Source of the DNA: Deltaproteobacteria bacterium
Lineage (GTDB): Bacteria; Desulfobacterota; Dissulfuribacteria; Dissulfuribacterales; S140-46
Direction: 5' to 3'
Length of the DNA: 29,834 nucleotides
Assembly (NCBI GenBank): GCA_015491585.1
Contig: WFVQ01000041.1
Span: 1 to 29,834 of the forward strand
Below the pieces are notes generated by a model, which did not search any database, had not been told where the DNA came from, and saw only the letters and a program-made list of their open reading frames with translations. The translations under genes and the position numbers were made by a program. Positions 21,114 through 23,997 of the stretch are shown here, one piece after another (position 1 is the first letter of the stretch; every line of letters starts with the position of its first letter).

Positions 21114-21386
21114 TTAAGTCTGTTCTTTCTTCTTTCTTCCCCTGCGTCCCCTCTTGGGCTTTATGCCCAGCTCTTCCACGTACTGGACCACAGGATTCTT
21201 GCGCTTGGCGCTCTTCCGCGGCAGCTTTATCCCGTTCTTGCGGAGCTCGCTGACGATCTTGGCCACCTGGAAACGGGAGAGACCACGGGCTTCTGCAATC
21301 TCCTGCGCTGTCATCTCGGCGTAATTCTCGTGGACGAACTTGACATCTTCCTTGGTGAATGGTCTGTTCCGTTTTCTTTCAGCCAT
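21114..21386 (-). CDS. Small, highly basic HTH-like DNA-binding protein (90 aa)
   Basis: The segment MTAQEIAEARGLSRFQVAKIVSELRKNG has an HTH pattern. 26 of 90 residues are K/R, and the tail is KPKRGRRGRKKK. GGGG RBS upstream. Confidence 0.8.
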   Translation of the reverse strand: MAERKRNRPFTKEDVKFVHENYAEMTAQEIAEARGLSRFQVAKIVSELRKNGIKLPRKSAKRKNPVVQYVEELGIKPKRGRRGRKKKEQT

Positions 21387-22456: not shown

Positions 22457-22585
22457 AGGTCTCCTCCTGGCCCCAGAGTCTAAGCCCGGCCAGGCCAAAA
22501 GGCAAGCCGCCCGTGCGGGTTGAAGAGGTCGCAGGTTATCTGTTATCTCTTATGGCTATTGGAAAAGTCAAGGAGGTATCACGAT

Positions 22586-23554
22586 ATGGAGCAGGTCAAG
22601 ATCGTAATCGCCGGGGCGGGGCCGGCTGGCATCGCCACTGCCGTGGAGGCCAAGGAGGCTGGTATCGATCCGGTGGTGGTCTGCGAGAAGGCCGGACACC
22701 TTTGTGACACGGTGGTGACGCTATTCCACGAGGGCAAGAGGGTGGATCCGGTATACCGAAAGGTCAAGGTGGAGCCCAAGGGGCTGCTCTCCTTCGACAC
22801 CGAGTCCAGGGAGGAGTTCCTCGACCGCATGGAGCGGGTGGTTAAGGAGTACGGAATAGATGTGCGGTTCCGGAACGAAGTCCAGAAGATAGAGCGTCAG
22901 GACGACGGGAGCTTCAAGGTCATCACTGGCGGAGGGCTGGAGTTCCAGGCACCAGTAGTAGTGGTGGCCATAGGCATTTTTGGAAAGCCCAACAAGCCCA
23001 GCTATCCGATACCCAAGGAGATCAAGGACAAGGTCTTCTTTGCCCTGCCAAAGAAGCCTATCACTGGCAAGAAGGTGCTAATAGTCGGGGGCGGGGACTC
23101 TGCGGCAGAAGCGGCGTGTTTTCTCGCTAAGGAGAACGAGGCGTTTCTCTCGTACAGGAGAGAGAAGTTCTTCAGGATAAACGAGGTGAACATGTGCGCC
23201 CTGGACGACTACAGCTCAAAGGGGAGCCTGACGCTGATGCTTGGGACCGACATCGAAGGGCTTGAGCCCAAGGATGACAAGGTCCTGGTCCATTTCAAGG
23301 ATGGGCGCGATATGGAGTTTGATGCCGTCTTTTATTTCCTTGGTGGAATGGCGCCATCGACGTTTCTCGAGGGTATAGGCGTGGAATGCGACGGCCGGAA
23401 GCCAAAGGTCGGGCCAGATGGGGAGAGCAACATTCCGGGCCTCTTTCTGGCTGGTGACCTGGTGCTGGACAAGGGCAGCATAATGGGGGCTTTCAACTCA
23501 GCCAAAGATGTTGTGGATGCCATAATCGCAAAATATGGAGACAAGGTGAAATAG
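22586..23554 (+). CDS. FAD/NAD(P)H-dependent oxidoreductase, thioredoxin-reductase fold without CxxC (FqrB/HP1164-like), 322 aa
   Basis: AGGAGG RBS before the ATG at 22586. VIAGAGPAG (FAD), VLIVGGGDSA plus SYRR (NADPH-type), PGLFLAGD. No CxxC. The segments GKRVD, AIGIFGKPNKP and FFRINEVN recall H. pylori FqrB (recalled similarity, not searched). Confidence 0.85.
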   Translation: MEQVKIVIAGAGPAGIATAVEAKEAGIDPVVVCEKAGHLCDTVVTLFHEGKRVDPVYRKVKVEPKGLLSFDTESREEFLDRMERVVKEYGIDVRFRNEVQKIERQDDGSFKVITGGGLEFQAPVVVVAIGIFGKPNKPSYPIPKEIKDKVFFALPKKPITGKKVLIVGGGDSAAEAACFLAKENEAFLSYRREKFFRINEVNMCALDDYSSKGSLTLMLGTDIEGLEPKDDKVLVHFKDGRDMEFDAVFYFLGGMAPSTFLEGIGVECDGRKPKVGPDGESNIPGLFLAGDLVLDKGSIMGAFNSAKDVVDAIIAKYGDKVK

Positions 23555-23555
23555 G

Positions 23556-23578
23556 GATGGGGCCTCAGCGGCCCCATC
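23556..23578. terminator. Hairpin between convergent oxidoreductase and selenoprotein genes
   Basis: GATGGGGCC (23556-23564) and GGCCCCATC (23570-23578) form a perfect 9-bp stem, followed by TTGTGT on the + strand. Confidence 0.6.
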
Positions 23579-23597: not shown

Positions 23598-23936
23598 TCA
23601 TTCCCTCTCTTCAGCCCCATGATCTATCAAGATCTTTTCCAGCTCTTCTTCTGAGATGACGCCGTTGCCCGGCCCCTTGTCCCATACAACGGCCTTACCA
23701 TCTATCTTGACCGCTGGCACCGGTTCCCCTTTCTTGATCATCTCCTGGGGAGTCACGATCAGTCTCACCCCTTTCAGGTCGTCGAGCACGCCCACGGCGG
23801 TGTTGAGGTTGGAGCGTCATCTTCCCCCCATTGGCGATCTGACCAGCAGTTCGAGATCGACCGCCATGACGGTGGCCGCAGTGATCATCCCAATCACAAC
23901 GGCCAGTGCCGTGGGTTTCCACCAGCTTTTCTTCAT
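23598..23936 (-). CDS. Putative secreted thioredoxin-like selenoprotein (112 aa, Sec40 encoded by the UGA at 23817-23819)
   Basis: AGGAGG RBS 7 nt before the ATG at 23936. It reads MKKSWWKPTALAVVIGMITAATVMA-VDLELLVRSPMGGR-UGA-RSNLNTAVGVLDDLKGVRLIV...PVPAVKIDGK...GVISEEELEKILIDHGAEERE in one frame. Signal peptide, Trx-like topology and a downstream SECIS-like hairpin. Confidence 0.8.
23787..23802 (-). promoter_or_regulatory. Candidate bacterial SECIS element
   Basis: mRNA CAC(C)GCC-GUG-GGCGUG forms a stem with one bulged C. The apical loop starts with GU and lies 21 nt 3' of the UGA, which fits the published bacterial SECIS model (G early in the loop, roughly 16-37 nt from the UGA). Confidence 0.6.
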
Positions 23937-23997
23937 GGCTATACCTCCTGGCTCTTTTATCCATTGTACGCTTTTCTTCATCACCATGCGAGGGTAG

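Follow-up and report, generated by a model that had tools for sequence, protein, structure and literature searches.

The question raised by this locus is whether a TGA codon within a small reading frame ends translation or is read as selenocysteine (Sec). The frame lies on the minus strand of a 29,834-nucleotide stretch from a Deltaproteobacteria bacterium (assembly GCA_015491585.1, contig WFVQ01000041.1), hereafter called the window. Opened by ATG and with AGGAGG in front, the frame occupies 23936..23598 and comprises 112 codons. An original prediction, made without database searches, had read it as the gene of a hidden, secreted, thioredoxin-like selenoprotein split by the gene caller at the UGA. 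The split gene was borne out, since the TGA was found conserved in orthologues, cysteine was found at its place in homologues and the machinery for Sec insertion was found in the genome. We are highly confident that the hidden selenoprotein gene is real, and it is likely that 23936..23598 constitutes a single gene for an exported, one-Sec precursor of 112 residues with a thioredoxin fold, which would belong to the TsoC/Thioredoxin_3 superfamily and for which a function is inferred below.

The reading frame and its annotation

The Shine-Dalgarno sequence AGGAGG, read directly from the minus strand (23944..23949), lies 7 nt 5′ of the ATG at 23936, and the orthologue of G001, a genome from another genus of the same family, has AAGGAGG at the identical spacing. 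Codons 1–25 (23862..23936), beginning with the start codon, encode a predicted Sec-type signal peptide (the export signal, not the amino acid), as judged from the translation and its conserved cleavage site: a basic n-region M-K-K-S-W-W-K is followed by a hydrophobic core and the site V-M-A↓V-D-L. The pattern AxA↓V(D/E)L was conserved in all homologues having an N-terminus, in support of the export signal that had been proposed. Codons 26–112 (23601..23861) encode the mature domain of about 87 residues, delimited by structure prediction, structure search and alignments, in which the motif SPMGGR-U, a cis-Pro-like loop VPAV and a conserved HGA near the C-terminus can be recognized.

The in-frame TGA, codon 40, is located at 23817..23819, where its column is shared with orthologues and occupied by Cys in homologues. 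It is the only one inside the frame and is followed by 72 codons, up to a true stop TGA at 23598..23600, where homology stops in all orthologues. The called ORF (open reading frame) of 65 aa begins at an internal GTG (23795) without a Shine-Dalgarno site, and the read-through chain has no Cys at all. These sequence-level statements of the original prediction, from the AGGAGG and the ATG at 23936 to the 72 codons after the UGA and the absence of Cys, were all correct.

In a public protein collection of about 15 billion predicted proteins, the family was present only as fragments of 39 aa, 48 aa and 64–65 aa, so that the gene is unseen by standard annotation and named by no curated model. The TGA itself was carried by four sequencing runs of hydrothermal-vent metagenomes belonging to two studies. 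A strain variant found in one of these runs showed eight substitutions over 451 nt with the TGA intact; four were third-position changes, probably silent, and four were conservative first-position changes (I15L, G49S, I60V and D79N).

Conservation of the TGA and its replacement by cysteine

The accepted in silico criteria for a selenoprotein gene are a TGA conserved together with its flanks, Cys-containing homologues and the presence of the Sec machinery (PMC13188914). A six-frame search of 60 relatives gave a single homologue, that of G001, with 53% identity and one TGA. Its read-through translation consists of a signal peptide followed by A-V-D-L-K-L-Y-T-R-S-P-M-G-G-R-U-A-R-N-L-E-A-A-V, and therefore its TGA occupies the same column as that of the window. 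The contigs from which the database fragments derive, L023 (92% identity) and L022 (64%), also have the TGA in this column with both flanks conserved. Altogether, the column is shared by the window, L023, L022, G001 and L058, with SPxGGR before it and xxN(L/I)xxA after it. In the 14 codons that precede the TGA, the window and L022 differ mostly at synonymous sites. The TGA and the GTG are separated by eight residues (R-S-N-L-N-T-A-V) that no called ORF includes, yet these are conserved in frame. Because the TGA and its flanks are kept in frame in other organisms, its position reflects more than chance.

The lineage represented by L058 and L059, from two JGI samples, adjoins aprAB-qmoAB and has kept both the TGA and the downstream hairpin described below. 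In both sequences (L058:5866-6198 and L059:337-669), two 1-nt homopolymer deletions (7 T instead of 8, and GG instead of GGG) fall in the region of the signal peptide and the motif, so that this copy is either decaying or affected by a systematic homopolymer sequencing error.

Cys forms were found in an exhaustive phmmer search over 1.84 billion representative proteins, which returned six matches. Among these, P0008 (332 aa, E 1.8e-9) covers the position and has a Cys there (V-N-E-P-Q-S-D-R-C-R-Q-N-I), as does its relative P0012 (335 aa; N-E-P-Q-G-G-R-C). In each of the two, the signal peptide bears the same A-x-A↓V-E site, and two rhodanese domains come after it. A third Cys form, from genome G067, reads N-N-P-M-G-V-R-C; it lacks a signal peptide and is joined to DUF5714. 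The pairing of TGA in orthologues with Cys in these three proteins answered the question of what homologues have at position 40, and UGA codon 40 is, judged by comparison of these sequences, very probably read as Sec. Another phmmer match, P0010 (1349 aa, with WD40 repeats), was a false positive due to the repeat V-W-D-K-G-G-K.

The family is rare. It was found in two of the 61 genomes formed by the relatives and the genome of the window (G000), namely G000 and G001. A search with the family profile gave no match among metagenome contigs, and among genome contigs it recovered only the known contig of G001. In a sample of 401 genomes of the phylum, two had the family: G000, and G067 with its Cys form. 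In G067, the fusion gene is located at L053:1715-2716 (minus strand) and matches DUF5714 with an E-value of 3e-48; DUF5714 is related to the C_GCAxxG_C_C putative redox proteins.

The selenocysteine machinery of the genome

The genome of the window is a metagenome-assembled genome of 2.06 Mb in 268 contigs, 87% complete. All parts of the Sec machinery whose presence had been named as a check were detected above their curated cut-offs: SelB with 371 bits, SelA with 611, SelD with 375 and the Sec tRNA with 75. The Sec tRNA gave two matches of equal score (75 bits), at C55:5024-5117 and C196:107-200, which correspond either to a duplicated gene or to redundant contigs of the assembly.

The selD gene, on contig C19 (locus L009, TGA at locus position 1528), is itself Sec-encoding, with the sequence C-A-S-G-U-A-A-K. 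Its selenocysteine insertion sequence (SECIS) consists of a perfect 6-bp stem topped by a 3-nt loop, GGC, at a distance of 17 nt from the UGA. The folding energy is −17.6 kcal/mol, and this element constitutes a useful reference for the binding target of the SelB of this genome. A further selenoprotein gene that looks unannotated was noticed on contig C57 (L057:3109-3700, plus strand). It is thioredoxin-like, with a UxxC motif (F-N-P-G-U-I-G-C), and has a hairpin of −14.2 kcal/mol with the loop AGUUAC 23 nt after the UGA. The string RSPPGGRURS, found on the same contig and considered as a possible paralogue of the window protein, is out of frame and antisense to an aspartokinase gene, and was discarded as a coincidence.

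Predicted fold and active site

AlphaFold2 (AF2), run on an alignment of seven sequences, gave a model with a predicted local distance difference test (pLDDT) score of 79 and a predicted template modelling (pTM) score of 0.68. The predicted order of elements is b1-a1-b2-b3-b4-a2, with strands at residues 26–32, 57–63, 73–78 and 81–86 and helices at 38–51 and 96–105, while the signal peptide appears as a low-confidence helix (residues 9–21). When this model was compared with the PDB by Foldseek, every one of the top 50 matches had the thioredoxin fold; most were thioredoxins or domains resembling them, the probabilities reached 1.0 and the E-values were weak (1e-2 and above). The mature domain is thus modelled as a minimal thioredoxin fold, in line with the thioredoxin/glutaredoxin-like fold that had been anticipated. 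The nearest feature clusters of the ESM Atlas, with scores of about 0.8, were of the Thioredoxin_3/glutaredoxin kind, which is taken as a lead only.

In the AF2 model, Sec40 is located in the first turn of helix 1. The claim that the UGA stands at the catalytic Cys/Sec position held as regards the start of this helix; as to which catalytic position, a MAFFT alignment with two Thioredoxin_3-type proteins placed the Sec on the second, and not the first, Cys of their C-P-R-C, with the Gly of G-x-x-U on the first. In the same alignment, V-P-A-V matched the T-P-A-(I/V) cis-Pro loop of these proteins.

Relation to TsoC and Thioredoxin_3 proteins

A family described as "NEPxGxxU motif selenoprotein TsoC" (NF045708), from Haft & Tolstoy 2025, is listed in Table 1 of a review from 2026 on the selenoproteomes of prokaryotes (PMC13188914); what is said here of Tso proteins rests on this table and on the names of the NCBIfam models. 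It had been suggested that the window protein might belong to a described PxGxxU-type family. A relative of this kind does exist in TsoC, but the relationship is distant and the window protein fails the TsoC model: against NF045708, with its cut-off of 45 bits, it gave no match even at E ≤ 10. Below the cut-off, matches were obtained for P0012 (35.2 bits, E 8.8e-9), P0008 (19.8 bits) and the G001 orthologue (15.7 bits), and two Thioredoxin_3-type genes also matched the model weakly. In its motif R-S-P-M-G-G-R-U, the window protein keeps the P, G and U of N-E-P-x-G-x-x-U and not the N and E, whereas the Cys homologues P0008 and P0012 bear N-E-P-x-(G/S)-x-x-C.

The family was then compared with 19 bona fide TsoC genes, taken from genomes within the phylum of the window; each of them has one TGA in N-E-P-N-G-K-P-U, starts at strand 1 and has no signal peptide. 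An hhalign comparison between both groups gave an E-value of 7.2e-6 and a probability of 84% over 77 columns, with U aligned on U. In each group, the domain has some 90 residues; a single Sec, within x-P-x-G-x-x-U, comes directly after strand 1, an A/V-P-A-V loop precedes strands 3–4, and the C-terminal helix is followed by an H-x-G-type segment. A link to rhodaneses is likewise common to both, through the rhodanese/DsbD fusion TsoB on one side and the rhodanese fusions of the Cys homologues found here on the other. In contrast to TsoC, the window protein has a cleavable signal peptide and a G-P-G-N-G insertion after strand 4, R/K-S-P replaces N-E-P, and an invariant H-G-A is found near the C-terminus of its family, where most TsoC proteins have I-C-R-H, with a Cys. 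By these alignments the window protein is a distant homologue of TsoC outside the TsoC equivalog family.

The likeness extends to the Thioredoxin_3 proteins (PF13192, "redox-active disulfide protein 2" or small glutaredoxin-like proteins), with which the Sec.1/Sec.2 thioredoxin-like selenoproteins also belong as a comparison group (PMC13188914). They share the minimal b-a-b-b-b-a fold of about 80 residues, an active site at the N-terminal end of helix 1 and, with D-G-K after it, a cis-Pro loop of the form T/V-P-A-(V/I). The window protein would differ from them in having no CxxC (the first Cys being replaced by Gly and the second by Sec), in having no Pfam match and in being exported. It is read as a new subfamily, separate, exported and Cys-free, of the TsoC/Thioredoxin_3 superfamily that adds to a known kind; since more than 110 families of prokaryotic selenoproteins are already on record, the overall picture is unchanged. 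What it does provide is an extension of TsoC to an exported form, and Cys homologues that tie TsoC to rhodanese and DUF5714 by fusion.

TsoC was above the cut-off in 30 of the 401 phylum genomes, compared to two of 401 for the exported family. In the 87%-complete genome of the window, neither TsoA nor TsoC gave a match and TsoB gave none near its cut-off; none of them is in the window. A TsoC-like selenoprotein with the motif N-H-P-P-G-R-R-U-R and 52.7 bits, barely above the cut-off for TsoC, was found in G003, a genome from the same order as the window (L052, contig C31, 111327-111569); its sequence falls between those of TsoC and of the exported family. In genome G217 (L054, contig C87, 80163-80676), two adjacent matches to the TsoC model have no TGA, one being a Cys form (D-E-P-R-G-K-T-C) with a degenerate-looking C-terminal half and the other a C-terminal fragment, so that this may be a decaying tso locus.

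Proposed function and mechanism

The multidomain homologues all carry sulfurtransferase-type or putative redox modules, with tandem rhodaneses in two of them and DUF5714 in one. The best match of the rhodanese parts of P0008 and P0012 was TsoB, and the contig of P0012 also encodes TusA/DsrE, a further rhodanese and MauE. From the rhodanese and DUF5714 fusions, the link with TsoB and the content of the P0012 contig, a role involving sulfane sulfur is therefore the most likely one. The original prediction appears to have been essentially right, although these fusions suggest sulfurtransferase (rhodanese) partners rather than its label of redoxin. DUF5714 may possibly be functionally linked to the selenoprotein domain; in G001, a DUF5714 gene is located two genes 3′ of the selenoprotein gene (L060:9533-10234), and in the genome of the window DUF5714 is encoded on a different contig.

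According to the mechanism that we propose, SelB would decode the UGA through the small hairpin with a G-U loop 21 nt downstream, and the Sec-type signal peptide (residues 1–25) would direct export of the precursor, with cleavage after V-M-A. Sec40, as the sole redox-active residue, would correspond to the second Cys of CxxC, with Gly in place of the first. Its selenolate would attack a partner, most likely a rhodanese-type sulfurtransferase of the periplasm, at a sulfane sulfur, a persulfide or a mixed disulfide. As no intramolecular bond is possible for a lone selenolate, the protein would have to act through an intermolecular Se-S intermediate; the adduct would be carried or resolved in this form, and an external thiol would finish the cycle.

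Small proteins with one reactive chalcogen that work with rhodaneses are known. TusA and DsrE are single-Cys carriers of sulfur relays, and thioredoxin is a sulfur acceptor of GlpE-type rhodaneses. The window protein would resemble them in mechanism only, as its fold differs from that of the TusA/DsrE-type carriers and they have no sequence relationship. In an organism that comes from sulfur-rich vents, it might accept, carry or resolve sulfane sulfur (or selenium) on behalf of periplasmic rhodaneses; we regard this as a serious possibility that falls somewhat short of probable. More tentatively still, and rather doubtful when taken as a whole, it could be the founding member of an exported, Cys-free, lone-Sec branch of TsoC/Thioredoxin_3 that acts as a periplasmic relay carrier of sulfane sulfur (or selenium) for rhodaneses in hydrothermal-vent Desulfobacterota, using selenopersulfide chemistry and a minimal SECIS. 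In any case, the rhodanese and DUF5714 fusions provide a testable hint to the role of the uncharacterised Tso proteins, and a GxxU protein of the thioredoxin fold without any Cys offers a clean natural system for the study of a lone selenolate at the second CxxC position.

It is also possible, if hardly the first choice, that Sec is inserted into a classical thiol/selenol oxidoreductase unrelated to sulfur transfer, such as a 1-Sec peroxidase or a reductase of the disulfide or methionine-sulfoxide type, recycled by a small thiol or by a partner fed by DsbD/CcdA. The thioredoxin/glutaredoxin-like fold would agree with this, as would the fact that prokaryotic selenoproteins are mostly redox enzymes (PMC13188914), but a resolving Cys is absent from the whole chain, and the fusion partners of the multidomain homologues found are in every case rhodanese or DUF5714, and never peroxidase or reductase modules. 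The gene adjoining here and in L022 encodes a Pyr_redox_3/YpdA-like flavoprotein of the disulfide-reductase type (22520..23554, plus strand; Pfam 1.1e-40; TIGR04018 4.8e-27, below its cut-off), which could be seen as the corresponding reductase. However, the flavoprotein gene is convergent with the selenoprotein gene and is missing at the loci of G001 and L058, and its product lacks a signal peptide, so that synteny is all that connects both genes and this flavoprotein was discarded as the reductase partner.

The candidate SECIS hairpin and the weight of the contrary evidence

With the proposed sulfane-sulfur carrier, as with the oxidoreductase, Sec has to be inserted at codon 40, and a stem-loop acting as SECIS had been claimed for this purpose. 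In the bSECIS model, the apical loop has 3–9 nt, with a G in its first two positions, and is located 16–37 nt after the UGA, on an upper stem of at least 4 bp with a minimum free energy (MFE) not above −7.5 kcal/mol (PMC13188914). Local folding and alignment located an interrupted hairpin in the window at nt 14–38 counted from the U of the UGA (23782..23806, minus strand). Its core is CGCC-GUG-GGCG (23799..23789), and the apical loop GUG (23795..23793), which is the same GTG taken as a start by the ORF caller, begins 21 nt after the UGA on a 4-bp upper stem; this geometry is within the bSECIS model. Across the five aligned sequences, G25 and U26 do not vary, nor do three of the four core pairs; the remaining one, which closes the loop, is C-G in the window and U-A in both G001 and L058, whereas L022 and L023 have C.A, a mismatch. 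The G-U apex was constant among the orthologues, whose local MFE ranged from −5.9 to −7.3 kcal/mol, and the register of the lower stem varied. When the hairpin was extended to 10 pairs with a bulged C, 84% of the cells were paired, compared to 26–50% in slid controls.

Two other structures were discarded. In the alternative helix proposed by RNAalifold, the loop of 9 nt is just 13 nt away from the UGA, outside the bSECIS geometry. A hairpin of −12.9 kcal/mol, which the window has with the loop GCUCG at 29 nt from the UGA, was dropped because it is absent from L023, which is 92% identical. So, the part of the claim that concerns the GU-starting loop 21 nt after the UGA stood, whereas the hairpin turned out to be weak and without statistical support. 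Its geometry is canonical and its stability low, and it is retained as a weak candidate for SECIS function. If functional, such a small SECIS would help to define the minimal SelB-binding element in the phylum.

Several results weigh against the reading of this locus as an exported, TsoC-related selenoprotein gene, and those on the hairpin are foremost. Its energy, from −3.7 (core) to −5.3 kcal/mol (local MFE), falls short of the −7.5 kcal/mol of bSECIS, and the local MFE compares with −17.6 and −14.2 kcal/mol for selD and the thioredoxin-like gene of the same genome. No significant covariation was seen in the five sequences, the pairing of the extended hairpin was not better than in column shuffles, and the fold of the 76 nt after the UGA was no better than that of shuffles (z = +1.7). 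In addition, the conserved bases of the hairpin also encode A-V-(G/S)-V, so that constraint on the protein could account for them. As regards the family, it is known from only about five independent lineages, and the other 399 genomes of the phylum sample gave no match at E ≤ 0.001. The window protein had no match in Pfam at E ≤ 1 and matched no NCBIfam model, an OXA-60 match of E 0.15 being noise, and the hhalign link to TsoC falls to an E-value of 2e-3 with the Sec-type members alone. Finally, a conserved operon partner is absent, the flavoprotein neighbour being excluded from such a role by its features described above.

The weakness of the hairpin and the lack of covariation are what favours a reading in which no Sec is inserted, the UGA being suppressed at a low level by a near-cognate tRNA (Trp, Cys or Arg) or ending translation to give a 39-residue peptide, with a hairpin that is no SECIS. 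This we consider very improbable. At least four diverged lineages preserve the TGA, with both its flanks under purifying selection and with Cys in homologues, a pattern that is the usual hallmark of Sec; the apical G-U loop does not vary and is at the canonical distance, and the genome retains the full Sec machinery. Least likely, and largely refuted, is a pseudogene or a pair of unrelated small ORFs with accidental continuity in frame, for although gene callers give pieces of 39 aa and 65 aa and the L058/L059 copy has two 1-nt deletions, conservation in frame extends over the stretch from the TGA to the GTG, which belongs to no called ORF, the 65-aa piece has no ribosome-binding site, and a nonsense mutation would not persist at one codon across 53–92% identity.

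Genomic surroundings

The selenoprotein gene stands alone in the window. Its upstream neighbour, which is divergent, is a 3-hydroxyisobutyrate-dehydrogenase-like gene, and the rest of the window includes the housekeeping genes tig, clpX, lon, mreB, gatB and surE and a gene for a PAS-GGDEF-EAL protein. Therefore, with a solitary gene in housekeeping surroundings, the window offers no operon-level clue to function. A GC-rich hairpin, GGGGCC-GCUGA-GGCCCC (23559..23575, minus strand), located by eye between the selenoprotein gene and the convergent flavoprotein gene, is probably a terminator shared by both. It was passed over by a consensus scan because its T tract is poor, and a similar hairpin is found 3′ of the L022 orthologue.

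In G001, a gene for a protein of 395 aa (L060:8191-9378) begins 44 nt after the selenoprotein gene on the same strand. It has no Pfam match and recurs in L061 and L062, but not in the window; its product, by its N-terminus, looks like a protein with a signal peptide and an outer-membrane beta-barrel. Within the window, a very basic 90-aa ORF between surE and gatB (21114-21386, minus strand) gave weak matches to helix-turn-helix domains (FaeA-like, E 1e-3).

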